This document shows positions 4,383 through 61,514 of a DNA stretch of 64,000 bases, in pieces. The first letter of the stretch is position 1; every line of letters begins with the position of its first letter. The position numbers were made by a program, and so were the translations under genes. The notes beneath the pieces are model-generated. The model was not told where the DNA came from, did not search any database, and saw only the letters and a program-made list of their open reading frames with translations. The DNA comes from an archaeon (GTDB lineage Archaea; EX4484-52; WAPT01), in the NCBI GenBank assembly GCA_029258795.1, contig JAPDKB010000002.1, positions 172,192-236,191 of the forward strand, in the 5' to 3' direction.

Positions 4383-4582
4383 TGGTGCCGAGGGGGGGAT
4401 TTCCTGCCACCAGAGCAGGAAGCGCGACGAAGCTTTGCTTCGGCGGCGTTCGAACCCCCGACCTCCAGATTTCTCAGCGCCGTAACACAAAATCATCGCT
4501 TGCTCATTACTCGGCAAACTCATCACTCATAAGCCAACACGGCTTATGAGTCTGGCGCTCTAACCAGCTGAGCTACCTCGGC
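4383..4582 (-). tRNA. tRNA-Met (CAT, elongator type) with two introns: 37/38 (4544-4471, 74 nt) and 59/60 (4448-4400, 49 nt); CCA encoded
   Basis: Acceptor GCCGAGG/CCTCGGC-A-CCA; D-arm TAGCTCAGCTGGTTAGAGC; anticodon stem CCAGA/TCTGG with loop CTCATAA; T-stem GGGGG/CCCCC. BHB CTCA/TGAG with TAA/AAA bulges, and a relaxed BHB TTCG/AGGA with AAC/AAT bulges. Confidence 0.93.
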
Positions 4583-4627
4583 ACCGAACAAAAGCGTGGC
4601 TCCGTAACAGAATTTTTATCCGGCAAA

Positions 4628-4640
4628 ATTTTATAAAAAT
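4628..4640 (-). promoter_or_regulatory. Putative TATA box for tRNA-Met
   Basis: TTTTTATAAAA on the minus strand about 50 nt upstream of the mature 5' end. Confidence 0.45.
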
Positions 4641-4667
4641 TCACACGGCAGCTTCACAAAAACCTTC

Positions 4668-5861
4668 TTAGCGTCTTTCAAATTTTCTGGTGGCGGCTAC
4701 AAGCAGAACAGCTGCAACCAAGCTCATCACAGCTCCATACGCAAATGTTGCTCCAGCGGATACGGAGCTCCACAACACCCCAGCCACCATGCTCGCAGGA
4801 AGAGATGCAAGTCCAACAGTCGTGTGAAATGCTCCAAGAGCTGTGGCTTTAAGTTCAGGCGGAGCTATATCAGCTATCAGGGCACGCTGATTTCCGTCAA
4901 CTATGGCATAAACCACCCCGTAGAGCAGGAAAAGAAGAATGAATGCTGGAATGCTGGAGAGGGCATAAAAACCCAAACATACAGCTGAGAACAGCAGGTA
5001 GCCAAGGGAGATGACTTCACCCCTTCCGATCCTGTCGGAGAGAACTCCAAAGGGCACAGCAAAAAAGGTGTAGGAAACGTTGAAAATAATGTAAAACACC
5101 ACAGCCGTTATGGTGGCGTTCACAACACTAACGCTGTTCATGACCTTCATTATGAAGAACATGTAGCTGAAGTTCGCAAGGGCAAAAACTGTCATCGCAA
5201 CTACAACCCACCTAAGCTCGGGAGGCAGGCTTCTTAAAGCAAGTCCCAATTTTTCCACACCTTTTCCGCTTTTCACCCTTTCCTCTCTCACGAGCAGAAG
5301 GGGTATAAGCGATGCAAAGCTGAGCAAACCTGCCACGATCAGCACACTCCTAATTTCAAAGCTCATCCTCCACAATAAAAAGAGCGCTACGATCGAGCCA
5401 ACAACCGCCCCCAAGCTGTCCATGGCTCTATGAATTCCGAAACCCTCTCCTTTCCTCTTCGGCATCGATTCAGCTATTATCGCATCACGGGGAGCTGTCC
5501 TTATTCCCTTTCCAACACGCTCAGCGGAGCTGAAAAAAGCAACATGAACCCAGCTTTTGGAGAAGGGCAGGAGGAGCTTGAACACAGCCGAGATGAGATA
5601 GCCAGCGAACACTATCGGCTTCCTTCTGTTCCATCTGTCCGCAAGATATCCAGAGAATACCTTCAGCAAGCTGGAGATGCTGTCCCTCAACCCGCCAACC
5701 ACACCGAGAGCTACGCTCCCTCCACCAAGCGAGTTTATGAAAGCGGGGAGGAGTGGTGCTATCATATCGCTGCTCACATCGTTGAGAAAGCTGGTCATAC
5801 CCAGTGCATAGATGTTCCTCTTTTCCATTTGGCTGGCTGTTTTCCCGTCTTTCTTGCTCAT
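4668..5861 (-). CDS. MFS transporter
   Basis: About 12 TM helices; motif-A-like GYLADRWNRRK and GVLSDRIGR; RTAPRDAIIA. Confidence 0.92.
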   Translation of the reverse strand: MSKKDGKTASQMEKRNIYALGMTSFLNDVSSDMIAPLLPAFINSLGGGSVALGVVGGLRDSISSLLKVFSGYLADRWNRRKPIVFAGYLISAVFKLLLPFSKSWVHVAFFSSAERVGKGIRTAPRDAIIAESMPKRKGEGFGIHRAMDSLGAVVGSIVALFLLWRMSFEIRSVLIVAGLLSFASLIPLLLVREERVKSGKGVEKLGLALRSLPPELRWVVVAMTVFALANFSYMFFIMKVMNSVSVVNATITAVVFYIIFNVSYTFFAVPFGVLSDRIGRGEVISLGYLLFSAVCLGFYALSSIPAFILLFLLYGVVYAIVDGNQRALIADIAPPELKATALGAFHTTVGLASLPASMVAGVLWSSVSAGATFAYGAVMSLVAAVLLVAATRKFERR

Positions 5862-5866
5862 AGTTC

Positions 5867-6784
5867 TCACTCCCCGAACACCGTTTCAAGAGGGGGCACA
5901 ACCTGCTTCTTTCTCGACATCACTCCTTCAAGCCAAGCTTGGCCATTTTCAAACTTCACGTTAAAAGCTTTCTCAAATGGCTCGACATCATCCGCCACGA
6001 GCAGTGCTGTTGAGCCCTCCTTCATGATGTCCGTAACGAGCACAAGCACTGCAAAGAAACCCTCTTCCTCCTTCACTTTCTTCATCTCCTCCATGATCTC
6101 ATCCTTTCTGGAAAGCACTTCCTCGCCATCAACCACTTCCAGCTGGTCTATCAACACCCTTTTACCGGCGAATTCGTACACCTTGTAGTCATTATATATC
6201 AGATCACGAGCGCTTTTCTCACTCAGAGCAGATTTCGCCTTGAACATCTCTATACCCCACGCTTCCATGTTTTCCACGCCTGCGATCTCCGCAAGCTTCC
6301 TTGCCATCTCTTTATCCTCACTGGTGGTTGTGGGCGACTTGAAGATAACAGTGTCTGAAAGGATCGCGGAAAGCAGGATTCCTGCTATGTTTTCGGGCAT
6401 TTTAACTCCTTTCTGGAAGAATTTGTTTGCAATGATCGTGGCTGTGCTGCCCGCAGGAACTGTCAGGAAGTAGATGGGTCTGTCCCAGCCGAACTTGATC
6501 TTGTGGTGATCCACCACCTCCACTATGTTCGCCTGCTCTATATCATCGGCACTCTGATCAAACTCGTTGTGATCAACAAGCACAACATCTTTGTCAGCTG
6601 CGCTTTCAAGCAAAGGTGGAGCATCCATCTCAAATTTCTCGAGCACAAGCTTCGTTTCGTTATTTATCTCGCCAAGCCGGAAAGCTTTTGCCTCTTCCCC
6701 TATCACATTCTTGAGGTACGCGTACGCTATGGCCGAGCAGATGGAGTCCGTGTCCGGGCTTTTATGGCCGAAGACATGCAGCAT
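5867..6784 (-). CDS. ppaC: Mn-dependent inorganic pyrophosphatase (family II, DHH/DHHA2)
   Basis: GHKSPDTDS, LVDHNE, VVDHH, SDT and SRKKQVVP motifs; RBS GGAGGTGA before ATG 6784. Confidence 0.95.
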   Translation of the reverse strand: MLHVFGHKSPDTDSICSAIAYAYLKNVIGEEAKAFRLGEINNETKLVLEKFEMDAPPLLESAADKDVVLVDHNEFDQSADDIEQANIVEVVDHHKIKFGWDRPIYFLTVPAGSTATIIANKFFQKGVKMPENIAGILLSAILSDTVIFKSPTTTSEDKEMARKLAEIAGVENMEAWGIEMFKAKSALSEKSARDLIYNDYKVYEFAGKRVLIDQLEVVDGEEVLSRKDEIMEEMKKVKEEEGFFAVLVLVTDIMKEGSTALLVADDVEPFEKAFNVKFENGQAWLEGVMSRKKQVVPPLETVFGE

Positions 6785-6887
6785 AATATCATCACCTCCT
6801 TTCACATACGGGACTTAAAATTAAGCGTGCCTAAACTTTAAAACCGTAATCTTTATTTAGATCAAAGACCATTCTATTATCTCGGTG

Positions 6888-7490
6888 ATGGAAATGGCGG
6901 AGGAGGAAAGGGCAGAGACGGAAGACCTGATTAACTTTCTTGCTCGGGATATAGGGCAGAAGATAATGCAGTTATATGGAGGCAAACCGGAAAAGATAAG
7001 GAAGAAGCTTGGAGATCATGTTCATATTCTCGAGCTTCAGAATCGCCTCACATCTATAGTGCTCTTTACCATGGGTATGAAAGCTGCTGTCATGGGAGCA
7101 GGTCAAACCGTTGGGAGTGCAATGGCATCTTACATGACGCTATGCTGTGATGTTACGTCCAAAATGAAAAAGTTCCAGCAGGCAAAAACCCTGAAAGAAG
7201 CTAAGAACTCCGAGCTCATGAAAATGCTCAAGGAGCTCTTTGAGAAGACAGGATTGGGCATTCTGGATATGGAAGAATTCGAGAAAGATGAAAGGATTGT
7301 GCTCAGCATAGAGGAGTGTGTGGAAAGCGCAGGCCTTCCTAATGTCGGAAAGAAGGTCTGCTATTACATGTCCGGATATCTGGAGGGATTGTTCAGCGTC
7401 TTTCTCGGAAAGGAGGTGAAGTGCCGCGAGCTTAAATGTGTGGCGAAGGGCGATAAGAAATGCGTATTTGAAATCGAGATCCTGGAGTGA
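6888..7490 (+). CDS. V4R domain-containing protein
   Basis: GLG...ECVESAG...CYYMSGYLEG...ELKCVAKGDKKCVF is the V4R pattern. Confidence 0.85.
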   Translation: MEMAEEERAETEDLINFLARDIGQKIMQLYGGKPEKIRKKLGDHVHILELQNRLTSIVLFTMGMKAAVMGAGQTVGSAMASYMTLCCDVTSKMKKFQQAKTLKEAKNSELMKMLKELFEKTGLGILDMEEFEKDERIVLSIEECVESAGLPNVGKKVCYYMSGYLEGLFSVFLGKEVKCRELKCVAKGDKKCVFEIEILE

Positions 7491-7550
7491 GGAGGGTTTC
7501 TTGAGATATAGGGATATCTTTATATAGTTTTTAACCCCCCATTTTAAAAC

Positions 7551-7769
7551 ATGGCGACGGTAATAGATGTGACGGGCAAAGTCTGTCCATATCCGGTCGT
7601 GGTGGCTCTTGACAAGCTCAGAGAGATCAGCAAAAAGGGCGGAACGCTCGAGATCATAACGGACGAGCCCTTGGCAACCAGAAGCGTACCTGACGAGGCA
7701 AAAAGGCTTGGATTCAGAGCAACTGTAGAAAGAGTGGACAAGGGATGGAAGATAGTGATAAAAAAGTGA
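7551..7769 (+). CDS. TusA/SirA/YeeD-family sulfur carrier
   Basis: IDVTGKVCPYP (CPxP motif), 72 aa. Confidence 0.9.
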   Translation: MATVIDVTGKVCPYPVVVALDKLREISKKGGTLEIITDEPLATRSVPDEAKRLGFRATVERVDKGWKIVIKK

Positions 7770-7780
7770 GGTGAGGATTG

Positions 7781-8203
7781 ATGGGGCTTAAGGAGTTCTC
7801 ATCCAAGGTCTGGGTTGGAGCAGTGCTCTTTTCGATCGTCAACGTCTTCATGTACTACAGCATCGGCAAGTTCTGGATCGGAGGGAGCAGCTTCCTGCCA
7901 CTGATCGGCAGTCAGGTACAGAAGTTCCTGTTTCCACTGGTGGTCAATGCAGGAGTGGTGGTTGGGACATTTCTGGCAGCGTTGCTCACGAGGGAGTTCA
8001 TAATAAGGAAGCCAACCTCTGACATAGTGAAGAGATCAATACTCGGTGGCTTCCTTATGGGTATAGGAGTTACATTAGCTCCAGGAACATGCTCCACACC
8101 GTTCGTCACAGGAATGCCAATGCTGGGAGTGAACTCCTTCCTGTCAGTGATCGGTATAGTGATTGGAGCATATATAGGATACAGATGGGTGGGTAGAAAA
8201 TGA
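7781..8203 (+). CDS. YeeE/YedE sulfur (thiosulfate) transporter, C-terminal-half-like subunit
   Basis: GTFLAA..EF and GGFLMGIGVTLAPGTC motifs; TM helices; adjacent to the TusA-like gene. Confidence 0.8.
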   Translation: MGLKEFSSKVWVGAVLFSIVNVFMYYSIGKFWIGGSSFLPLIGSQVQKFLFPLVVNAGVVVGTFLAALLTREFIIRKPTSDIVKRSILGGFLMGIGVTLAPGTCSTPFVTGMPMLGVNSFLSVIGIVIGAYIGYRWVGRK

Positions 8204-8724
8204 CGCTGGCACAACCAACTTTGCTATTGGGATTCCTGTTCGGCGTGGTCTTTGGTTTCATAGTGCAGAGAATGAGCTTCTGCGTTTCCACTGACCTGGC
8301 TCAGGCGTTTGCAGGAAACCCCAGGAGAATTCTGACGTGGCTCACGATAATTTTCATAATCACAGGAGCGGGATTCGTTTACCTCGGACCAAAAGCGGTT
8401 GGTCAGCTCAGGGGTTACGGAATCTACAACATAATTTCTGGGATTTTCTTTGGCGTGGGCATCGTACTCAGCGGTGGCTGCGTGCTTGGAACCCTCAGAA
8501 GGATGGGAGAGGGCTTTCTGCACTCATGGGTGGTCTTCGTTTCATGGCTTCCGGGAATGGCACTGGTGGTTTACGTCCTTAACCCGATATTGCAGGGTAC
8601 GTACCACATACCAGAAAAGATGCCGCTGCTTTCGGACGTGCTTCACATCAGCAACTGGGCAGCTTATGCGCTGGTAGCAGTTGTGCTGCTTGTGATGACC
8701 TGCTGGGCCTACAGAAAGAAGTAA
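8200..8724 (+). CDS. YeeE/YedE sulfur transporter, N-terminal-half-like subunit
   Basis: GVVFGFIVQRMSFC and GIFFGVGIVLSGGC..G.L.RMGEG motifs; ATGA overlap with the previous gene. Confidence 0.85.
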   Translation: MTLAQPTLLLGFLFGVVFGFIVQRMSFCVSTDLAQAFAGNPRRILTWLTIIFIITGAGFVYLGPKAVGQLRGYGIYNIISGIFFGVGIVLSGGCVLGTLRRMGEGFLHSWVVFVSWLPGMALVVYVLNPILQGTYHIPEKMPLLSDVLHISNWAAYALVAVVLLVMTCWAYRKK

Positions 8725-8761
8725 CAGCATTGCAGAAAAACAGTCGATTGGCACTTTTCTC

Positions 8762-9682
8762 TCATTTTATTTTTATTTCCATGAAATCCTCCGCAATTTT
8801 TGTGTTCGGAAATATCTCCTGCGCCTCCTTCAGCAGCTTCTCCACCGTGTACTTTCTGTTGTTGTTATCCTGCTGGTACCTCCGGCTTATGTGGGTCAGC
8901 ACAAGCATTTTCACATTCGCCTCTTTCGCAAGCATTGCCGCCTGCCTTGCTGTCATGTGGTAATACGTATGAGCTCTGTTCTCAAATTCGGAGCAGAAAG
9001 TACCATCGCATATCAGCACATCAGCATCCTTTACAGCTTTGACAAGCGATTTTCTGTAGCCAGTATCGCCGGTGTAAGCTATTTTTTTACCCTTCACAAC
9101 CTCCACAACATCTTCCGGCTTTATTCTCCTGCCTTTGAACAGTATCTCCTCTCCCTTTTTCAACTTGCCTATCAGCGGACCCGAAGTTAAGCCAAACTTT
9201 TTCGCTTTTTCCATGTTCGCTTTGATTTTATCCTTTTCCTGAAACACAAAGCCAAGGGAAGGAATGCCGTGGTAGGTTTTGAACGCCTCGATGTAATACC
9301 TGTCAAACTCCACTCTATCCCCTGGCTTGAGGTCTTCAGCTATAACCGCAAAACCCCTCTCAAAATAACCTATGCTCAGCAGCTTTTCAACGAACCCGAC
9401 AGTACCTTCCGGGCCGTAAATATAGAGCGGCTTCTTTCTTCCCTCCATGCTCATGGTCTGTATCAATCCGGGCAGCCCAGCGAAGTGATCAGCATGCCAG
9501 TGCGTGATGAACACGGCTTTTATCCTCATGAACTTGAGGTTCTTTATCATGAGCTGTCTTTGCGTGCCTTCTCCGCAATCAAACAGAAAGCGGTCTTCGT
9601 TGTACTTTATCAGGATGGCAGGTAAACCACGCTCTCTTGTTGGTATGCCGGCGCTCGTCCCAAGAAAATGGATGGTCATCAC
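8762..9682 (-). CDS. rnz: Ribonuclease Z
   Basis: FLGTSAGIPT.ER, DCGEGTQRQ, THWHADH, GP flexible arm, YTGDT, LTHISRRY. Confidence 0.96.
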   Translation of the reverse strand: MMTIHFLGTSAGIPTRERGLPAILIKYNEDRFLFDCGEGTQRQLMIKNLKFMRIKAVFITHWHADHFAGLPGLIQTMSMEGRKKPLYIYGPEGTVGFVEKLLSIGYFERGFAVIAEDLKPGDRVEFDRYYIEAFKTYHGIPSLGFVFQEKDKIKANMEKAKKFGLTSGPLIGKLKKGEEILFKGRRIKPEDVVEVVKGKKIAYTGDTGYRKSLVKAVKDADVLICDGTFCSEFENRAHTYYHMTARQAAMLAKEANVKMLVLTHISRRYQQDNNNRKYTVEKLLKEAQEIFPNTKIAEDFMEIKIK

Positions 9683-10956
9683 AGCTCATCCACCTTAACC
9701 AGTTTTTCCTCCCCGCTTTCCATATCACGCACTTTAACTTTGCCTTCCTTAACCTCATCCGGCCCGACTATCACCACATATCTTGCACCTATTCTGTTCG
9801 CATGCTTCAGCTGCTTTGACAGGCTTCTGTCCATCAGCTCCATCTCGACAGCGTAGCCCTTACCTCTGAGCTTCGATGCTATGCTGGCACAGACATCCAT
9901 GAGCTGGGGAGTCACGAAAGCGATGAAGTAATCAGGACTGGTACTCACTTCAGGTAGCTTGCCCTCAGCTTTCAGCACCTCCATCAACCTTTCCACACCA
10001 CCGGCAAGCCCCACGGCAGGCATATCCTTACCATAAATTCCAACAAGCTCATCATACCTCCCGCCGCCAAAAATCGCGCTCCCCAGAGCTTTTCTGTTGG
10101 TTGCGTAAGCTTCAAACACTATTCCAGTATAATAATCGAGCCCTCTCACAATAGAAAGGTCGACCACGCAGTTTTCCAGCACGCGGAGAGCTTCCAGCGC
10201 ATCTCTCAGCTGCAAGAGTTCATCACATGCGGAATTGACATCCTTACTCTGCACTCTGCTCTTCACGGCTTCGACCACATCTTCGAACTCGCCTTTGAGG
10301 TCAAGAGCATCCAGCAGATCTTCAGCCTTCTCTCTCATTATTCCACGTCTTTCAAACTCATCCAGCAGCTCTTCCCGTTTCATTTTCTGTAACTTATCTA
10401 TGCACCGGAAAGCATCCAAAATTTTATCCCTCTCTATTCCGACAGCTTCCATCACCGCCTGCACAAGTTTCCTGCTACTCACCCTCACCTCAAAATCCAC
10501 ATCAAACGCTTTCAGCACATCACATCCTAGCGCTATGCATTCCGCATCCGCATAAACGCTTGCTGAGCCGAAAATTTCAGCATCCCACTGCCAGAATGCT
10601 CTGTAGCGTCCTTTTTGTGGAGCTTCATACCTGAACATGTCAGCAATGCAGAACCATCTTACGGGAGTGGGGTAAGCCGAGCCAGCAACCATTCTCGCCA
10701 TCCCAACGGTCAGATCAAACCTCAATCCGAGCTTCCTGCCGGCCTTGTCCTCAAAAGCGTAAATCTCTTTTTCTATCTCCTCTCCTGATTTGGCAGCCAG
10801 CGTTTCAAAGCTCTCTATTTTGGTGGGCTCCACCTCCTTAAACGAGTATCTTTTCATGATCTCTCTTATCGTGGAGAATATCGCCTGCCTCGCGGCCATC
10901 TCTTCCGGATAAATGTCCTTCATCCCTTTGGGTGGTTGAAACTTATCGGACGCCAT
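9679..10956 (-). CDS. hisS: Histidine--tRNA ligase
   Basis: PKGMKD, LRFDLTV, FRYEAPQKGRYR, RGLDYYTG and GGGRYD; C-terminal anticodon-binding domain. Confidence 0.97.
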   Translation of the reverse strand: MASDKFQPPKGMKDIYPEEMAARQAIFSTIREIMKRYSFKEVEPTKIESFETLAAKSGEEIEKEIYAFEDKAGRKLGLRFDLTVGMARMVAGSAYPTPVRWFCIADMFRYEAPQKGRYRAFWQWDAEIFGSASVYADAECIALGCDVLKAFDVDFEVRVSSRKLVQAVMEAVGIERDKILDAFRCIDKLQKMKREELLDEFERRGIMREKAEDLLDALDLKGEFEDVVEAVKSRVQSKDVNSACDELLQLRDALEALRVLENCVVDLSIVRGLDYYTGIVFEAYATNRKALGSAIFGGGRYDELVGIYGKDMPAVGLAGGVERLMEVLKAEGKLPEVSTSPDYFIAFVTPQLMDVCASIASKLRGKGYAVEMELMDRSLSKQLKHANRIGARYVVIVGPDEVKEGKVKVRDMESGEEKLVKVDEL

Positions 10957-10981
10957 GAAAGAGAATTAGCCATCAGAATTT

Positions 10982-11425
10982 TTAAATAAGTGATTTTGGG
11001 CCTTTTTCCTCCTTCATATTGCAGTAGATTTTGGTTTCGGGATAAATGTTCCTTATACTCGATATCAAAGATAGCGCTCTATAGGTGGCGTCGCTTCCTT
11101 CCTCATTAATCCTGATCACCAATTCTCCATCGTTACTGTAATAATCTCCTTTTAGGGAATATCTTTCGGGCTCAACCCCCAGAGAGGCAAGATAGTCCAT
11201 TGCCACTTTTTCAATTTCTTCCAAGGTTTTTTTAGGTCGAGACGCCCCACAGAAATGAATTTTTATCTCTCTACTGCCCTCAATTCTGTCAAACTCCTCA
11301 TTAACAACAACATGTTTCGGCTGACTTTTTACAATGTTCCTGTACAGTTGTTGGAAGGATGTTAGCATAACCATCCCTTCCAATTTTCTGGTGGGAATTT
11401 TTAATTTGTTGTGTTTATAGCTCAT
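10982..11425 (-). CDS. Hypothetical protein
   Basis: 147-aa ORF filling the gap between hisS and alaS; no recognisable motif. Confidence 0.55.
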   Translation of the reverse strand: MSYKHNKLKIPTRKLEGMVMLTSFQQLYRNIVKSQPKHVVVNEEFDRIEGSREIKIHFCGASRPKKTLEEIEKVAMDYLASLGVEPERYSLKGDYYSNDGELVIRINEEGSDATYRALSLISSIRNIYPETKIYCNMKEEKGPKSLI

Positions 11426-11489
11426 CCGTCAAGGAATACATAATCCCCATAACCAAAAATAAAAAGTTTCGCTCTCCAATTTTCTGAGC

Positions 11490-14192
11490 ATGGTCGTTGA
11501 TGAGAAAAAGATCAAGCAGGAGTTCAAGAAGAAAGCGCAGAAGACGCCTGAGAAATACTATCCTGCAGAATTCCTGAAAAGCGAGGGCTTTGTTAGAAAG
11601 CAGTGCAAGAAGTGCGGCACATTCTTCTGGAGTGTGGATGAAAGCAGAGAGATCTGTGATGATCCCAACTGCACCGGCTTCTATTCTTTTATAGGAAATA
11701 GTCCTTCTCCCGTGAAAATGGACTTCATAAAGGTCTGGAAAGAGTTTGCGAAGCTGTTTGAAAAGCTCGGCTACACACCCATAGCGAGATATCCGGTTGT
11801 TGCAAGGTGGAGGGATGACATGGATTTTGTGATAGCCAGCATAGCTGATTTCCAGCCGCATGTTGTGAGCGGTGAGGTTGAGCCTCCTGCAAATCCCCTT
11901 GTTGTTCCGCAGTTCTGTCTGCGCTTCACGGACATAGAAAACGTTGGTATAACGGGAAGGCATTACACGGGTTTCGTGATGATAGGGCAGCATGCCTTTG
12001 TGCCAGCAGAGCAATACGATCAGGAGAAGTATCTCGCGGACATATATGAATGGCTGAGAAGGGGTCTAAAGCTTCCGAAGGAGGAGATAGTTTTTCATGA
12101 GGATGCTTGGGCAGGCGGTGGAAACATGGGCCCGAGCATGGAGTTTTTCTCCCGCTCTCTGGAGATCGGGAATCAGGTCTACATGATGTTTGACATCAGA
12201 GATGGCACGATAAAGGAGCTGCCTATAAAAGTGCTCGACATGGGGATGGGGCAGGAAAGGTGTGCGTGGCTAACAACTGCTTCCGCCACCAGCTATGAGG
12301 CCAATATGCCGAAGGTGGTTGAGCTTCTTTACAGGCTTACCGGAGTTAAGCCGGAGCATGAAATTATCGAAAAATTCCTGCCTTATTCGGGCGTGCTGAA
12401 CGTGGATGAGTTGGAGGATGTTGAGAAAGCATGGCAGAGTGTAGCGAAAAAGATGGGCGTGGATGTTCAGCAGCTTAAAAGGGCAATTCTCCCTGCTGCA
12501 GCCATATATGCCATAGCAGACCACACAAGAAGCCTGCTCTTCGCTATAGGAGACGGTGCCCTGCCGTCCAACGTTGGTGGCGGCTACAATTTGCGTGTAA
12601 TTCTGCGCAGGGTTTTTGATTTGATGGACGAATACGGCTGGAGTTTTGATCTGGCAAAGGTGCTGGAAACTCATGCCTCCTACATGAAATCCCAGTACCC
12701 CGAGCTGATGGATGTGGTGGAGCACGTTGCCACGGTTTTTGAGGTTGAACGTAAAAAATACGATGCCACCAGAAAGATGGTGAAGAAAATAGTGGCGAAG
12801 CTGAAAGAAGAGAAGCTGGACGAAGAAAAACTCGTGGAGCTCTATGACAGCAAGGGCATCTCTCCGGAAATGCTGGTAAAAGAAGGTATCATAGAGAAGG
12901 TACCGAAGGACTTCTACACAAAGCTGGCTGAAAGGCATGAGAGGGCAAGAAGGAAAGAGCTTGAAAAGAAGGAGAAGGAAGTAAAGCTCGAGCTTAAAGG
13001 CGTGCCGCCAACTCAGATTCTTTACTATGATGATTACAGGCTTGTGGAATTTGAGGCTAAAGTTGTCAGGGTAGATGGAAACTTTGTGGTGCTGGACAGG
13101 ACCGCTTTTTACCCGACGAGCGGAGGTCAGCTTCACGATGTTGGGTGGCTTGATGGAGTGGAGGTTGTGAACGTATTCAAGGAGGGTAATCTAGTGGTGC
13201 ATGAGGTTAAAGATGGAGGCAAATTCAGGGAAGGGATGAAGGTCAGGGGCAAGATAGATGTGGAGCGAAGAGTGCGGCTTGCACAGCTGCATACCGCTAC
13301 ACACATAATAGGTGGCGCGTGCAGAAAGGTTGTAGGAAAGCATGTGTGGCAGGCAGGAGCGGAGAAAAGGCCGGAAAAGGCGAGGCTTGATATAACCCAT
13401 TACGAATCGCTGGATGAGAAAATGATAAGAAAGATTGAGGAGGAGGCGAACAGAATCGTGATGCTCAACATTCCGGTAGAGAGCTTGATGATAGAAAGGA
13501 ATGAAGCGGAAAAGAAATTCGGATTTGTGATCTATCAGGGCGGGGCCGTGCCGGGGAAGATACTCAGGATAGTCAAGATAGATGATTTCGATGTGCAGGC
13601 GTGCGGAGGAACGCACGTAAAAAGCACGGGTGAGGTTGGACCCATAAAGGTGGTGGGCACAACCAAAATTCAGGATGGTGTTGTCAGACTTGAGTTTGTA
13701 GCTGGTTTAAGTCTGCTTGACTACGTGAAGGAAATGGAATCGTATTTAAAGGAAAGTTGTTCGGTGCTTGAGGTAGCACCACAGCATCTTGCAAAAACCG
13801 TCAGAAGATTCTTTGAAGAGTGGAAGAAGCAGAAAAAGGAGATAGAAGTGCTGAGAAGCAAGCTTGATGAGGTGCTTGTGAGCAAAGCGAAACTGGAGAG
13901 AAAGGAGTTTGATGGTGTTACATGCATGTTCTCCAAGCTGGAGGACATGGAGCTGAAGGACGTGCTCAAATATGCTAGTGAGAAGGCAAAGGATGCTGAC
14001 GTTCCAATCTTGGTTGTCAGCGTGAAGGGTAAAGGTGCGCAGCTCGTAATCGCTTACAACAAGAACACATATGATAAAGCTAATGTGCTGAAAGAATGGG
14101 TGGAAAAGGAGCTACAGGTAAAGATGCGTGAGGGCAAGGATGTATTCGTGGGCGGGTGCGCTGCAGAGAAACTCAAGAGTAAGCTACTGTGA
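11490..14192 (+). CDS. alaS: Alanine--tRNA ligase (archaeal type)
   Basis: N-terminal CKKC...CDDPNC Zn ribbon, YPVVARWRDD, FYPTSGGQ, editing-site HTATH and CGGTH. Confidence 0.97.
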   Translation: MVVDEKKIKQEFKKKAQKTPEKYYPAEFLKSEGFVRKQCKKCGTFFWSVDESREICDDPNCTGFYSFIGNSPSPVKMDFIKVWKEFAKLFEKLGYTPIARYPVVARWRDDMDFVIASIADFQPHVVSGEVEPPANPLVVPQFCLRFTDIENVGITGRHYTGFVMIGQHAFVPAEQYDQEKYLADIYEWLRRGLKLPKEEIVFHEDAWAGGGNMGPSMEFFSRSLEIGNQVYMMFDIRDGTIKELPIKVLDMGMGQERCAWLTTASATSYEANMPKVVELLYRLTGVKPEHEIIEKFLPYSGVLNVDELEDVEKAWQSVAKKMGVDVQQLKRAILPAAAIYAIADHTRSLLFAIGDGALPSNVGGGYNLRVILRRVFDLMDEYGWSFDLAKVLETHASYMKSQYPELMDVVEHVATVFEVERKKYDATRKMVKKIVAKLKEEKLDEEKLVELYDSKGISPEMLVKEGIIEKVPKDFYTKLAERHERARRKELEKKEKEVKLELKGVPPTQILYYDDYRLVEFEAKVVRVDGNFVVLDRTAFYPTSGGQLHDVGWLDGVEVVNVFKEGNLVVHEVKDGGKFREGMKVRGKIDVERRVRLAQLHTATHIIGGACRKVVGKHVWQAGAEKRPEKARLDITHYESLDEKMIRKIEEEANRIVMLNIPVESLMIERNEAEKKFGFVIYQGGAVPGKILRIVKIDDFDVQACGGTHVKSTGEVGPIKVVGTTKIQDGVVRLEFVAGLSLLDYVKEMESYLKESCSVLEVAPQHLAKTVRRFFEEWKKQKKEIEVLRSKLDEVLVSKAKLERKEFDGVTCMFSKLEDMELKDVLKYASEKAKDADVPILVVSVKGKGAQLVIAYNKNTYDKANVLKEWVEKELQVKMREGKDVFVGGCAAEKLKSKLL

Positions 14193-14255
14193 TTCCCCTT
14201 TTATCGGCAACCCAGACACACAATCTTTATCTGCTTTTTCACCCTTACATTCTTC

Positions 14256-14804
14256 ATGATGCTCTTCTTTCGCGTTTCTGAAGTGGGAAAATGCATGAGG
14301 TTCCTCTACTTTACCAGAGTGCTCGGGAGGCTTGAGGACATCTCCTCCAAGCCAGAAGTCGTGGAAGGCAAAACCCTACATGAGAACTTCCAGAACGAGT
14401 GGATCGAGCAGGTTGACAGCGAAGCTAAACAGGAAGAGGAAGCGATGTTCCTACATGACAAGTTCGTGGTGAGGGGTAAAGCTGACATAGTGAGCGGAGA
14501 TAAGGTCATAGAGATAAAGACCACAAATAAGCTGCCACCCAGACCATATGAGACCCATGTAAGGCAGCTTAATTTTTACCTCGGGCTTTTCAAGCTGGAG
14601 CACGGCTTACTGATTTACCTCCTGCGGAACGGAAACGGCAGGAGAGAGTTTGAGGTGGGCTTTGACGAAGGAATGTTTCTCAACGACCTCAGACGGTTCG
14701 AGAAACTTTACGAATGCCTCACTAGCTTCATAGTTCCGGAAAAGGAGCCATCGCCGCTCTGCAACTTCTGCGAGTACAGGTTCTTGTGTGATAGAATGAA
14801 ATAA
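14256..14804 (+). CDS. Stand-alone Cas4-like PD-(D/E)xK nuclease
   Basis: N-terminal Cys (GKCMR), G..LH, GKADIV...IEIKT, QLNFY and C-terminal CNFCEYRFLC (4-Cys Fe-S staple); no CRISPR array or other cas genes in the window. Confidence 0.82.
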   Translation: MMLFFRVSEVGKCMRFLYFTRVLGRLEDISSKPEVVEGKTLHENFQNEWIEQVDSEAKQEEEAMFLHDKFVVRGKADIVSGDKVIEIKTTNKLPPRPYETHVRQLNFYLGLFKLEHGLLIYLLRNGNGRREFEVGFDEGMFLNDLRRFEKLYECLTSFIVPEKEPSPLCNFCEYRFLCDRMK

Positions 14805-14842
14805 TGGTTTGATTCTTAAAATTATGGAATAAACATGTTTGC

Positions 14843-15730
14843 ATGCATGAAAATTACGGATTTACATGCGCATACGACTTGTTAAGGGGAGGATATGATC
14901 CTCAAAGAAAAAATGAACTGGTAGCGGAACTGTATCGCGCTGAGAGTTCTTTTCTAAAAGATTTGGTGGATGAGTGGATCGCAGAGAAGGTTGTTGAGAG
15001 CAGGGAAAAGCTCGAAAAGGAAATCAATGAAATTTATGATGGTGTATGCACATCCTTACCGCCTGTGCTCACAACAAAAACTCACTGCAATGTTGTGCCC
15101 TACAGAATAGACATAAAACACAAGGGCGGTGTGCCTTGCCTATCACTTAGATTGGTTTCATGGTTTAAGGGGGATGAGGTGTATATTCAGCCAGCGGGGC
15201 TGTACGAGTTGGAGGTGTGTGGTGAGTTTCCACAGGAATTGGAAAATTATGAAATTGTGCTTCATTCCGAGGGTAGCATGATATCTCCATCAGCTTCGGT
15301 TTGCATTCCTCATAAAGATCTGGCGGAAAATGATAGAAAGCTTGTGGAAAATTTTGTGCAGCTTGTTCTGAGCTATTTTGGTCATGTTTATGAGGCAGAA
15401 AGAAAAATGGAAAGCTTGGAAAAGGATTTGGAGCTAATGGAGAAAGAACTTAACAAACTTTATGCTGATCCTGTGCTTTTTTATTCTCGAACGGATAACA
15501 GACCTGTGGGAATCCTCATTCCTCCCCATTTTACACACATAGTGGTTGGTGAGGATGTTCTTCCTACTTCCAACGGAAAAATTGCTGTTGAGGTTGATGG
15601 AAAGAGGCTTCAGAGAGCTTTACTGCTTTTAAGGGCGGAGGCCTTTGATAGAGCGGTGGTGCAGGAGGACTGGAGATGGGAGCCGTGGTACTGGTATGCT
15701 GAGGTGAAGGAAGGTACAGTTTTTCGCTGA
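14843..15730 (+). CDS. Hypothetical protein
   Basis: 295-aa ORF with coiled-coil-like segments; no recognisable family. Confidence 0.65.
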   Translation: MHENYGFTCAYDLLRGGYDPQRKNELVAELYRAESSFLKDLVDEWIAEKVVESREKLEKEINEIYDGVCTSLPPVLTTKTHCNVVPYRIDIKHKGGVPCLSLRLVSWFKGDEVYIQPAGLYELEVCGEFPQELENYEIVLHSEGSMISPSASVCIPHKDLAENDRKLVENFVQLVLSYFGHVYEAERKMESLEKDLELMEKELNKLYADPVLFYSRTDNRPVGILIPPHFTHIVVGEDVLPTSNGKIAVEVDGKRLQRALLLLRAEAFDRAVVQEDWRWEPWYWYAEVKEGTVFR

Positions 15731-15786
15731 ATTAAAGAGCTGAGCAGTGGAAATAATAAATAGTAGTTTGCCAACATTACTTTTTC

Positions 15787-17190
15787 ATGAGGAAGGATGA
15801 AATGAGGAAAGTGCTTGCTCAAGCATTGAACCTTGTTAAACCGTCTGTCGAGGAAAAAAAGAAGGTGATGAAGCTTTTCGAGAAGATAAAAGAGTTTATA
15901 GAGCAGAATTACGGGCTGGAAGCTAGGTTAATGGGTTCTGTGGCCAAGGACACGTTTTTGAGGGGAGCAAGAGACCTGGACATCTTCGTGCTATTTCCGG
16001 TTGATGTGAGCAGGGAGGAGCTGGAGAAGAAGGGGCTTGAAATTGGAAGAGCGGTTTTCGAGCATTTTGGAGGAAAGGATGTCGTTGTTGCCTATGCCGA
16101 ACATCCGTACACGAGAGGTGTGATCGATGGTTTTGAGGTTGAAATCGTGCCAGCTTACAAGATAAAGGATGCGTCTCAGCTTAAGAGCGCGGTTGACAGG
16201 ACTCCATTTCACACGGATTACGTGCTCAAAAATTTAAGGAATCATGATGATGTCAGGCTGTTGAAAGCATTTTTGAAAGCGATAGGAGCGTACGGTTCTG
16301 ATCTCAAGACTGCTGGCTTTTCCGGCTACTTGTGTGAGGTGCTCATAATCCATTGCGGAGATTTTATTTCCCTGCTGGAAGCGTGTCAGAGATGGGGATG
16401 GCAGGAGATTATAGATCCCGCAGGCCATTACAGCAGGAAGGATTACTCCAAGCTCAGAAGGATGTTCAAAGGACAGCCGCTGATAGTTGTGGATCCCGTC
16501 GATCCCAAGAGAAACGTGGCTGCTGCGCTTTCTGCTGAGAAGCTCGCTTTATTCATTTACGCTGCCAGGAAGTTCATGGAAAAGCCATCCATTAAATTCT
16601 TCCAGCCCATCAAGATCAGAGTGAACAAGAAAGCGGAGCTGGAAAAGCTGAAAAAGGAGGGCAGGAAAGTTTACGCTCTTGTGTTGGAAAGGCCTGCCGG
16701 AGTGATGGACGACACTCTTTACCCGCAGTTGAAAAAACTCGCTGACAACATCAAAGCTTTTCTCGAGCACAACGAGTTTGTGGTGGAGGATACATGGATT
16801 TTCGGGGATGAGGAGGTCGGAGTTGGGTTTGAAGTGGTTGATGACAGGCTTCCATTGACGAGGATAATGAAGGGCCCGCGCATTTTCGATGATGTGAAGC
16901 ATCAGGAAAGGTTTGTGAGCAAGCACAAAGTTGTGTGGATCGGAGAGGGCGGGAGATTTTATGCGAGGGAAAAAAGGAAGTACAGAAACGTGAGGGAGCT
17001 CATCTCCTACCATCTCTCAGGCAGTTTTGAGGAGATAAGGCAGAAGGGTGTACCCAAACACATAGCGAGAAGCGTGACAGAGCATGGCTATCTCTTGTTC
17101 AAGAACGAGGAATTAAGAGAGGTGAAAAGCAGAGAGTTCTGGGAGGGGCTTGTCAAATTCAACCTGCGAAAGCTGGAAAGATTAGAGTAA
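15787..17190 (+). CDS. cca: CCA-adding enzyme (class I, archaeal)
   Basis: GSVAKDTFL...DLDIF, YAEHPY, SAVDRTPFH, GFSGYLCE and DPVDPKRNVAAA. Confidence 0.96.
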   Translation: MRKDEMRKVLAQALNLVKPSVEEKKKVMKLFEKIKEFIEQNYGLEARLMGSVAKDTFLRGARDLDIFVLFPVDVSREELEKKGLEIGRAVFEHFGGKDVVVAYAEHPYTRGVIDGFEVEIVPAYKIKDASQLKSAVDRTPFHTDYVLKNLRNHDDVRLLKAFLKAIGAYGSDLKTAGFSGYLCEVLIIHCGDFISLLEACQRWGWQEIIDPAGHYSRKDYSKLRRMFKGQPLIVVDPVDPKRNVAAALSAEKLALFIYAARKFMEKPSIKFFQPIKIRVNKKAELEKLKKEGRKVYALVLERPAGVMDDTLYPQLKKLADNIKAFLEHNEFVVEDTWIFGDEEVGVGFEVVDDRLPLTRIMKGPRIFDDVKHQERFVSKHKVVWIGEGGRFYAREKRKYRNVRELISYHLSGSFEEIRQKGVPKHIARSVTEHGYLLFKNEELREVKSREFWEGLVKFNLRKLERLE

Positions 17191-18300
17191 AAGGGTGCAG
17201 GTCTCAGCCACCATGGCAAACAGTATCACCGCCATGCACAGCGCGTAGAGAATCTTCTCCATAACTTTCAGCTTTTCAACCCTCATAAGTGTGAACAGAA
17301 TGAACCCTATGGGTATTAGCACGCCGTAACAGGCGGCTATAGCAAGCAGCTGCGTAAAGCTGAAATTTCCCAGCCCCATAAACACGCTGACGAGAAGGAG
17401 CAGAATGGCTGACTCTCTCCTGAGCTTCAGATCACTTTCCATCATATCACACGCGGCAAGCGTTACCGCAATGGCTGATGTTGCTACTGCAAAAAACGCG
17501 AAGCTCACTCCAAGCACCTGCAGAACACCGCTGCTGAAGGATGTTGGTGCAATTTCATTGACTTCAGGCATCGAAGCCACAACAGCAAGCGAGAAGAGCA
17601 GGTAAATCAGAGCGGGAATTCCGAAGCCAAGCACAATAACGCTCCTGAAGTTCCTTTCAAGGTGCTCGTGCCTCAGCAGTTTGTACGCTTCGGGAATCAC
17701 CATGTGGGCATCCATCGCAAATAGTATGACCAGAAATGAAGTGAGTAGATTTCTCATTTCATTATCCGCGCTCCAGAAAAGCGGTACCTTTTCAACATTC
17801 CCGTTGGGAAGCAAAAGAACGATGAGAAGAAGGATAACTGTGACCATCATGAACGTTATGACGGATTCCAGCCTGCCGGTGCTTTTCAATCCCGTGATTA
17901 CGGGAAAAGTGCAGAGCAGAAATAACACCACAACTCCGTAGATGTTGCTCAACCCTACATGAGCAAAGAGCGAGCTGTAAGCGGTGAAATATGCCCCGAG
18001 CGTCGGCACAAAGAAAAGAAGAAGCGAAAGCACGACCACCCTCTTGCCTGTTTTTCCAAACCCGAGCTCCACCAGCTCTCCCAGATAAACCCGATCCACA
18101 TTTTTGAAATGCTGCATCAGCCTTTTGGTGGCGAGGGATGTAAGATAATATATCCAGAACGCGATGACTGCAAGCAGAATATAAGGCACAAGTCCGCTCT
18201 CCTTCAGGCGGGAGGGCAAACCCAAGATGCCAGCACCTATTACCGCTCCCACAAGAATTGATACGCTCTCCACATATGCTTCGCGTTTCCACAGAATCAT
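17182..18300 (-). CDS. Aromatic amino acid permease family transporter
   Basis: LVGAVIGAGILGLP N-terminal motif; about 11 TM helices. Confidence 0.82.
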   Translation of the reverse strand: MILWKREAYVESVSILVGAVIGAGILGLPSRLKESGLVPYILLAVIAFWIYYLTSLATKRLMQHFKNVDRVYLGELVELGFGKTGKRVVVLSLLLFFVPTLGAYFTAYSSLFAHVGLSNIYGVVVLFLLCTFPVITGLKSTGRLESVITFMMVTVILLLIVLLLPNGNVEKVPLFWSADNEMRNLLTSFLVILFAMDAHMVIPEAYKLLRHEHLERNFRSVIVLGFGIPALIYLLFSLAVVASMPEVNEIAPTSFSSGVLQVLGVSFAFFAVATSAIAVTLAACDMMESDLKLRRESAILLLLVSVFMGLGNFSFTQLLAIAACYGVLIPIGFILFTLMRVEKLKVMEKILYALCMAVILFAMVAETCTLLL

Positions 18301-18363
18301 GATTTTATGGTTGACCCTTCAAAACTATTTTAAGATTTCGGTGGTATAATATAGCTACACCAC

Positions 18364-18490
18364 GCGGGGGTCGCCTAGCCTGGTTTGGCGTGGGACTGCA
18401 GATCCCATTTACCCGGGTTCGAATGCTGCGGAAGCAAAACTTCCTTGCATTTCCAGCTGTCCGCAGCTGAAAATCCCGGCCCCCGCTCCA
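18364..18490 (+). tRNA. tRNA-Cys (GCA) with a 50-nt T-loop intron at 59/60 (18424-18473); CCA encoded
   Basis: Acceptor GCGGGGG/CCCCCGC with U73 discriminator; anticodon arm TGGGA-CTGCAGA-TCCCA; T-stem CCGGG/CCCGG. Full BHB: TTCG/TGAA helix, AAT/AAT bulges, GCTGCGGA/TCCGCAGC outer helix. Confidence 0.94.
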
Positions 18491-61436: not shown

Positions 61437-61514
61437 TGGTGGTCCGGGGGAGATTTGAACTCCCGACCTCCCGCTTATCAGGCGGGCGCTCCGACCAGGC
61501 TAAGCTACCGGACC
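61437..61514 (-). tRNA. tRNA-Ile (GAT), no intron, CCA encoded
   Basis: GGTCCGG/CCGGACC-A-CCA; CCCGC-CTGATAA-GCGGG; GGGAG-TTCAAAT-CTCCC. Confidence 0.96.

Follow-up and report, generated by a model that had tools for sequence, protein, structure and literature searches.

Related T-loop introns in archaeal tRNA genes and a predicted second fold of their excised circles

The common view of archaeal transfer RNA (tRNA) introns is a passive one, in which nothing but the bulge–helix–bulge (BHB) counts and the excised piece is waste. Two introns in a stretch of 64,000 nucleotides (nt) of archaeal DNA (GTDB lineage Archaea; EX4484-52; WAPT01; assembly GCA_029258795.1, contig JAPDKB010000002.1, positions 172,192 to 236,191 of the forward strand; the window, below) raise the question of whether such a piece can encode a structure of its own. 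They interrupt a tRNA-Cys and a tRNA-Met gene, and a sequence-only reading of the window had proposed that selection maintains a second structure in both. Fold prediction and sequence comparison suggest that the subfamily to which the two introns belong may be bistable, with a BHB in the precursor and a two-hairpin fold in the excised circle; we regard this as an even call. The sequences, the homology and recent gain of the introns and the predicted energies are firm, and covariation bears the second fold out only in part.

Two introns at one T-loop position

Both introns lie in the T-loop at position 59/60 and were read from the sequence by hand; their coordinates and sequences were as first reported. 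The genome that contains them (G000) comprises 1.17 megabases at 96% completeness, and two congeners, G001 and G002, are 90-94% complete. The bit scores below refer to R1, a covariance model carrying only the BHB.

18364-18490, plus strand: tRNA-Cys(GCA) gene with its T-loop intron; CCA encoded (hand-read; in G001 and G002 the orthologous gene is the same but intron-less)
18424-18473, plus strand: tRNA-Cys intron, 50 nt, at 59/60 (R1 match C2:190604-190670, 66.4 bits; insertion point fixed by the intron-less orthologues)
4582-4383, minus strand: tRNA-Met(CAT) gene; two introns, CCA encoded (hand-read; the G001 and G002 orthologues lack the T-loop intron)
4448-4400, minus strand: tRNA-Met T-loop intron, 49 nt, at 59/60 (R1 match C2:176585-176650, 53.1 bits)

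The splice position was set independently by the orthologues in the two congeners, which are uninterrupted at 59/60, read through the T-loop at exactly that point and correspond to the canonical tRNAs obtained after intron removal. The intron boundary carries an ambiguity of 1-2 A residues. Over the first 35 nt, the Cys and Met introns are identical at 26 positions by hand count, in agreement with the earlier count, and their proposed homology was borne out. Over the whole window, ARAGORN and Rfam at gathering score missed both genes and found only a tRNA-Ile at 61437-61514. With its intron option, ARAGORN returned only 27 'genes' from G000, several of them spurious, so standard annotation badly under-calls the tRNAs of this genome.

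The Cys intron forms a strict BHB, with a central helix of 4 base pairs (bp), including one G·U, and bulges of 3 nt on both sides. The Met BHB is relaxed, its central helix consisting of 3 bp and a G·A mismatch (hand-read).

18418-18421, plus strand: Cys exon strand of the 4-bp central BHB helix (T54-G57), pairing with intron nt 45-48 (18468-18471)
18422-18424 and 18472-18474, plus strand: Cys 3-nt bulges after the central helix strands, each carrying a splice site
18425-18429, plus strand: 5' strand of Cys BHB helix 3 (intron nt 2-6), pairing with 18463-18467 (nt 40-44)
4447-4442 with 4411-4406, minus strand: Met BHB helix 3 (fold prediction)

Helix 3 of the Cys precursor can be extended to 11 bp with one bulge, and the BHB-constrained Cys fold lies at most 1 kcal/mol from the minimum free energy (MFE). 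In the alignment, the central-helix columns (6-9/57-60) are 94-96% paired. Judged by sequence, both elements read as ordinary protein-spliced (BHB) archaeal tRNA introns at 59/60.

G000 has one gene for the splicing endonuclease EndA, of 197 amino acids with the domains PF02778 and PF01974 (N and C/catalytic; C6:35295-35888, plus strand), and one RtcB gene was found, whose closest relative (91% identity) has a title bearing the kingdom-level name used for DPANN archaea. Non-canonical and relaxed BHB introns are said to require broad-specificity endonuclease types. A single EndA gene was detectable in G000 despite its many such introns: no second subunit was found at E ≤ 0.001, and the search may have overlooked one, or an unusual architecture.

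A predicted second fold of the circle

The sequence-only reading described the interior of each intron as complementary to its own joined ends. The pairing is real and takes the form of two adjacent local hairpins, nt 1-26 and nt 27-50 (Cys numbering); no base pair spans the intron junction, and the hairpins stack end to end in the circle. In the first hairpin, a short helix P0 (nt 1-3 with 24-26) encloses hairpin H1 (nt 7-11 with 17-21). In the second, H2, the last 10 nt of the intron pair with its middle segment (nt 27-36). When the structures were evaluated as dot-brackets, each rod had the 17 bp, the 3x2 internal loop and the one A·C mismatch originally counted.

18430-18444, plus strand: Cys hairpin H1 (nt 7-11 with 17-21), compatible with both folds
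18447-18459, plus strand: Cys middle segment; nt 24-26 pair with the first 3 nt (P0) and nt 27-36 with the last 10 nt (H2), from circle MFE and pair counts
18464-18473, plus strand: Cys intron 3' strand common to both folds; its partners are helix 3 and the T-loop for the BHB, and the middle segment for H2
4448-4446 with 4425-4423, minus strand: Met P0 (fold prediction)
4442-4437 with 4433-4428, minus strand: Met H1 (fold prediction)
4421-4414 with 4408-4401, minus strand: Met H2 (fold prediction)

P0 and H2 exclude the BHB because they take up strands that it needs, those of helix 3 and the one that the intron contributes to the central helix. Both introns thus contain, as had been claimed, a second structure that cannot coexist with BHB helix 3.

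To compare the two folds, we used nearest-neighbour energies predicted with ViennaRNA. The Cys circle has an MFE of -16.3 kcal/mol, which is exactly the rod, versus -12.1 kcal/mol with helix 3 kept. For the Met circle the values are -19.1 and -15.0 kcal/mol; the Met rod as first described has -18.4 kcal/mol, and the MFE structure has identical H1 and H2 and keeps P0, lengthened by two pairs. The same order was obtained for three related introns: ProTGG1 (-15.5 versus -14.1 kcal/mol), GlyCCC (-13.7 versus -12.8) and the Ala intron of G001 (-12.9 versus -10.5). The MFE of the T-arm precursor kept helix 3 in all seven sequences folded, and the two-hairpin fold was less favourable there than the BHB fold, with gaps of 4.8 kcal/mol for Cys and 2.0 kcal/mol for Met. 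Helix 3 was likewise preferred in the linear Cys intron (-17.2 kcal/mol), so it is closure of the ring that brings the preference for the rod. The ground state predicted in this way is context-dependent, a BHB in the precursor and the two-hairpin fold in the circle.

The alternative fold had been expected to dominate the circle, and this is what the predictions give: the pair probabilities of H2 were ≈ 0.99 at 37 °C. For Cys they fell to 0.84-0.92 at 60 °C and to 0.34-0.49 at 75 °C, and for Met to 0.93-0.96 and 0.71-0.77, respectively. Circular folding was also compared with shuffled controls, the check proposed with the original observation. Shuffling the interior with the ends fixed gave p = 0.010 (Cys), 0.007 (Met) and 0.003 (ProTGG1). 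When the middle segment alone was shuffled, the observed circular MFE was attained, per 1000 shuffles, by 17 for Cys, 37 for Met and 7 for ProTGG1, and by 193 for GlyCCC, 319 for ProCGG, 56 for the Glu intron of G002 and 24 for the G001 Ala intron.

A fold that competes with the BHB could instead gate splicing, as the sequence-only reading had suggested as one option. Since the precursor prefers the BHB at equilibrium in seven of seven cases, such a gate could act only kinetically: the local hairpins would form first during transcription and hide both splice sites, and the precursor would have to refold to the BHB, so that splicing is delayed or regulated. In the alternative fold, each of the two cleavage positions is paired; the hairpins, being local, would be complete before the 3' strand of the T-stem is made; and the gap in Met is small. 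The larger gap in Cys argues against a gate, as does the fact that most T-loop introns of G000 have no such competitor, and we consider a kinetic gate improbable.

In the bistable reading, the intron 3' strand would pair in the precursor with the T-loop and the intron 5' strand, giving the BHB that is cut by the splicing endonuclease. After excision and closure, it would shift onto the T-loop-like middle segment to form H2, and the first three nucleotides would pair beside it as P0. The outcome would be a dumbbell, with an internal splint on which the ends of the intron lie against each other. The intron would thereby release T-loop nucleotides 54-57, its ends would be held together for RtcB, and burial of the T-loop-complementary tail and of the junction would leave a compact, inert ring. 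That this refolding occurs and matters is something that we infer from the models, as a plausible reading.

If a conserved second fold excludes the BHB, is favoured only after circularisation and pairs the terminal nucleotides side by side, the intron would inform the events that follow cleavage; product release, ring closure or ring stability would then potentially be encoded in it. Taken to its full extent, this would make the subfamily a topology-sensing RNA switch, in which cleavage and RtcB closure tip the BHB into the dumbbell. The T-loop mimic would strip the tail off the real T-loop and the ends and junction would be buried; splicing would become irreversible, the T-loop would be freed and a durable 50-nt ring would be left, maybe used by the cell or by the intron family. 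We hold this extended version to be rather unlikely.

One intron family and the reach of the second fold

R1 matched G000 at 29 places (E ≤ 1). For 26 of them the flanks were read and look like tRNA genes, and at least 26 tRNA genes of this genome carry T-loop introns. A search with an nhmmer profile recovered 14 T-arm-plus-intron sites at E ≤ 0.02. In the R1 search across relatives, 27 of 41 genomes (G000 included) had a match, with 21 matches in G000, five in G001 and seven in G002; searches at the level of order, class and phylum gave the same 42 genomes as the search of relatives and added nothing.

Sixteen introns of G000 align with each other and occupy the same T-loop position in non-orthologous tRNA genes. 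Their BHB ends are common to all members, and their interiors split into subfamilies. The Cys/Met-type interior is also found in two tRNA-Pro genes and in tRNA-Gly(CCC), the Cys and GlyCCC introns being 86% identical outside the last 13 nt. A second type is found in Val, Ala-CGC and two Leu genes, and a third in Glu-TTC and Gly-TCC. Beyond G000, the Cys/Met subfamily takes in Glu and Ala introns of the two congeners, as well as relatives from G013 and G005, genomes of two other families of the phylum in which its architecture is kept. From these alignments and the uninterrupted congener genes, we take the introns to be one sequence family that recently multiplied in G000, and the pattern fits the known spread of BHB introns between tRNA genes. 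The T-loop introns of tRNA-Leu(CAA) and tRNA-Leu(CAG) (G000 C3:113156-113219 and C5:31276-31339) are identical in sequence, which points to a very recent copy or to gene conversion.

Pattern scans of larger collections gave little more. A gapped pattern found 118 or more stretches in metagenomes; none of the 80 loci examined passed the intron model, so that all are chance matches. With a 17-base pattern, none of four viral loci passed, and of three archaeal-titled loci tested from a genome collection, only the already known congener locus did.

Does the second fold drive this spread? The sequence-only reading had offered a viroid-like minicircle as one possibility, that is, a ring that spreads the intron by reverse splicing and copying into DNA, or that replicates itself. 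That the family has spread among non-orthologous tRNA genes is clear, and the ring is predicted to be compact. All copies, however, lie in tRNA T-arms and none elsewhere in G000, no Rfam ribozyme or other family was matched, and no RVT_1 reverse transcriptase was found in this 96%-complete genome. The dumbbell would bury the loop that the reverse reaction needs, and, as noted, the four viral-contig pattern matches fail the intron model. In addition, subfamilies without the fold have multiplied too, and therefore the spread of the family needs no second fold. The minicircle idea finds no support in these results, and we rate it as very improbable.

Element-end hairpins and a fixed target word are also features of IS200/IS605-type elements. 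The two hairpins could accordingly be single-strand DNA signals for a Y1 transposase of this type that inserts after a fixed word, and the introns do have two hairpins at their ends and always follow the same T-loop word. Y1_Tnp had no matches in G000, G001 or G002; it is present in 8 of the 42 genomes, none of them in the genus concerned. The BHB explains the fixed position as well. Mobilisation at the DNA level was rejected on these grounds, and we give it next to no credence.

How far does the fold itself extend? From the 42 genomes, we collected 98 distinct T-loop introns. Fifteen were flagged as having a two-hairpin circle MFE with abutting ends, and three were dropped because their second 'hairpin' was a lone terminal pair, which leaves 12 of 98 in the phylum; in G000, the count is 4 of 25 distinct introns. 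These proportions make the fold a trait of a subfamily and not a general property of T-loop introns. A first test looked for runs of at least six contiguous pairs between 3' end and interior, which were present in 14 of 42 representatives (< 75% identity), against 5.5 in shuffles and 8 in a mock with the 3' end reversed. It was superseded by a comparison of duplex energies with reversed interiors as the control, in which most of the apparent excess disappears: the mean energy was -5.00 kcal/mol versus -4.42 kcal/mol in the control (n = 42, p = 0.04).

Covariation was examined in MAFFT alignments that were not fitted to structure. The differences between the Cys and Met rods had been called compensatory. 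Only three pairs are changed on both sides, i1:i26, i7:i21 and i32:i45 (Met i32:i44; i denotes intron nt), and the remaining differences are one-sided, wobble or lost pairs. In alignment A3, the H1 helix (columns 18-22/28-32) is 78.8% paired, with four of five pairs changed on both sides. Larger comparisons used a set of 12 sequences that was picked by eye and is hence biased; a set of nine (A5), from three families, with a pairwise identity of at least 0.76 outside the last 13 nt, an arbitrary cut-off; and a set of seven defined by nhmmer, which is confined to the genus and to which nhmmer recovers just two weak extra members.

In the 12 sequences, P0 was 88% and H2 83.5% paired, with double changes at two of three and five of ten pairs, respectively. 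The whole rod structure, including the T-stem and H1, was 87.0% paired versus 74.4% after shuffling (0/500) and had 15 double changes versus 8.0 (0/500). The BHB reached 90.0% in helix 3, 95.8% in the central helix and 91.4% versus 74.5% (0/500) as a whole. In the nine sequences, P0 and H2 together were 88.4% paired versus 83.5% in shuffles (0/500), with five double changes, at 5 of 13 pairs, where 2.2 were expected (10/500); the BHB was 92.6% paired versus 85.8% (0/500). The pair i1:i26 is U-A in six and C-G in two of these sequences. Since nt 1 lies in a BHB bulge, the BHB gives no reason for its interior partner to track it, and i1:i26 is the most telling pair.

We also simulated independently evolving sites on a tree, a null that is crude in that it uses a short alignment, a FastTree tree and majority-rule roots. 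For the 7, 9 and 12 sequences, respectively, the P values for percentage paired were 0.024, 0.006 and 0.008 for P0 and H2, 0.068, 0.026 and 0.001 for the BHB, and 0.025, 0.005 and 0.000 for the T-stem. In the nine-sequence set, P0 and H2 thus covary about as well as the BHB and the T-stem.

Besides the crudeness of that null, several results weigh against a maintained second fold. In the seven genus-level sequences, P0 and H2 were 89.8% paired versus 87.5% after column shuffling (69/500), with three double changes versus 1.7 (112/500), neither of which is significant; the BHB of the same set gave 96.1% versus 91.7% (6/500). Admitting the next four sequences by identity (0.74-0.75) gave a set of 13, in which P0 and H2 were 81.0% paired (P = 0.042), their double changes were not significant (P = 0.215) and the BHB signal strengthened. 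Covariation of P0 and H2 therefore depends on the sequence set and is not robust. Outside the genus, complementarity between 3' end and interior equalled the reversed-interior control (-3.73 versus -3.70 kcal/mol; n = 24, p = 0.30). The fold is absent from the Val, Ala-CGC and Leu subfamily and from that of Glu-TTC and Gly-TCC, which are equally well spread, and the circle MFE of the ProCGG and G002 Glu introns retains helix 3. The Cys circle is predicted to be marginal at 75 °C, where its MFE is positive. Finally, the intron segments are low in complexity, consisting of repeated 4-nt purine/pyrimidine words and a 6-nt palindrome, and several alternative pairings arise easily for that reason.

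These results bear on the rival explanation that the fold is a by-product of descent. The ancestral intron would have had the repeated short words and the palindrome, and because the copies are young, the complementarity would be inherited rather than maintained and the fold would have no role. The introns were gained recently, the seven genus-level copies are 80% identical per column with pairing not above the column shuffle, and the signal varies with the sequences admitted. The phylum has no general tendency to complementarity between 3' end and interior, and the middle-segment shuffles of GlyCCC and ProCGG were unremarkable. Descent alone accounts less well for double changes at 5 of 13 pairs that include a terminal pair free of BHB constraint, for a tree-aware null that the pairing exceeds in each of the three sets, as strongly as the T-stem and BHB do, and for the architecture kept in other families of the phylum. 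We consider descent a serious possibility, if somewhat short of even. That the second fold is kept by selection has about even chances; the proposal of selection has the covariation of the nine- and 12-sequence sets behind it, fails to exceed the shuffle in the seven sequences and weakens in the 13, with double changes that are not significant. The BHB finds support in every set.

G000 would offer a compact test system for these readings, with T-loop introns in more than half of its tRNA genes and close copies with and without the fold. If the fold is merely inherited, the family would still be a clear-cut case of T-loop introns gained in a recent burst outside Thermoproteales.

Known introns and circles, and other introns of these genomes

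Non-canonical BHB introns at 59/60 in the T-loop have been described in DPANN archaea, for example in the pre-tRNA-Cys(GCA) of Candidatus Micrarchaeum acidiphilum ARMAN-2 (Fujishima et al. 2011, PMC3239211). The introns of the window resemble the ARMAN-2 case in position, in isoacceptor (Cys), in a strict or relaxed BHB and in belonging to a small-genome archaeon with a DPANN-labelled nearest relative. They differ in number, at least 26 tRNA genes of one genome having such an intron, and the sections of that paper drawn on here describe the BHB alone. In Thermoproteales, 'transposed' tRNA introns are very similar introns in non-orthologous tRNA genes that were gained after speciation (PMC4090602, PMC3239211). 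The present family shares both the distribution among non-orthologous genes and the gain after speciation, and occurs in a different lineage.

In Sulfolobus and Haloferax, tRNA introns occur as circles after excision; the majority are relatively unstable and some, such as that of tRNA-Trp, are highly stable (Danan et al. 2012, PMC3326292). In the part of that study used here, the stable circles are explained by a C/D box ribonucleoprotein, whereas the stabiliser proposed for the Cys/Met subfamily would be a refolding of the RNA, based on prediction. Metazoan tricRNAs are circles of tRNA introns that are made by a conserved endonuclease and RtcB pathway and persist in cells (Lu et al. 2015, PMC4536317). 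They are eukaryotic and come from the canonical position, and the portion of that report consulted makes no claim of topology-dependent refolding. Family spread and introns at 59/60 are, then, phenomena already described; the introns are of a known kind, and their second fold, present in the sequence, is only moderately supported as one kept by evolution. The 'transposed' introns were reportedly described by Fujishima et al. in 2010; a full-text literature search, with that study and supplements outside its scope, did not find a second, BHB-excluding fold in T-loop intron circles.

A further T-loop intron of G000 (C1:64119-64184, minus strand) has an interior unrelated to the Cys/Met type. Its circle, too, is predicted to form two hairpins, with both termini paired (-10.2 kcal/mol; interior-shuffle p = 0.033), and this may be an independent instance of the fold or a chance one.

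Another well-populated T-loop intron family was seen in families f3 and f6 (loci L064, L095, L097, L098, L100, L103-L106, L110, L111, L114, L116, L120 and L123). It has a relaxed BHB whose helix 3 begins three nucleotides into the intron (hand-read), and an internal hairpin, compatible with the BHB, with clear compensatory swaps. This large family of other genera initially looked as if its middle segment, too, paired with the 3' end. We considered it as evidence for the rod and rejected it, the compensatory changes fitting the BHB-compatible hairpin, between the 5' part and the middle segment, by hand reading.

The tRNA-Met gene contains a second intron that the sequence-only reading did not mention and that lies outside the claim of a rod.

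~4544-4471, minus strand: tRNA-Met canonical (37/38) intron, with C and D box-like motifs

It resembles a C/D box small RNA (sRNA): Rfam gave a sub-threshold match to the C/D sRNA family sR11 at 4473-4530 (23.9 bits; gathering score 39). Both congeners keep this intron at 95% identity. The stretch ahead of its putative D' box is a repeat of the tRNA's own 5' acceptor strand and, by sequence, could pair with the 3' acceptor strand. The combination of a T-loop intron and a canonical intron with C/D box-like motifs was also seen in tRNA-Leu(CAA) (G000 C3:113026-113219, plus strand) and in tRNA-Trp (G000 C2:24449-24636, plus strand).

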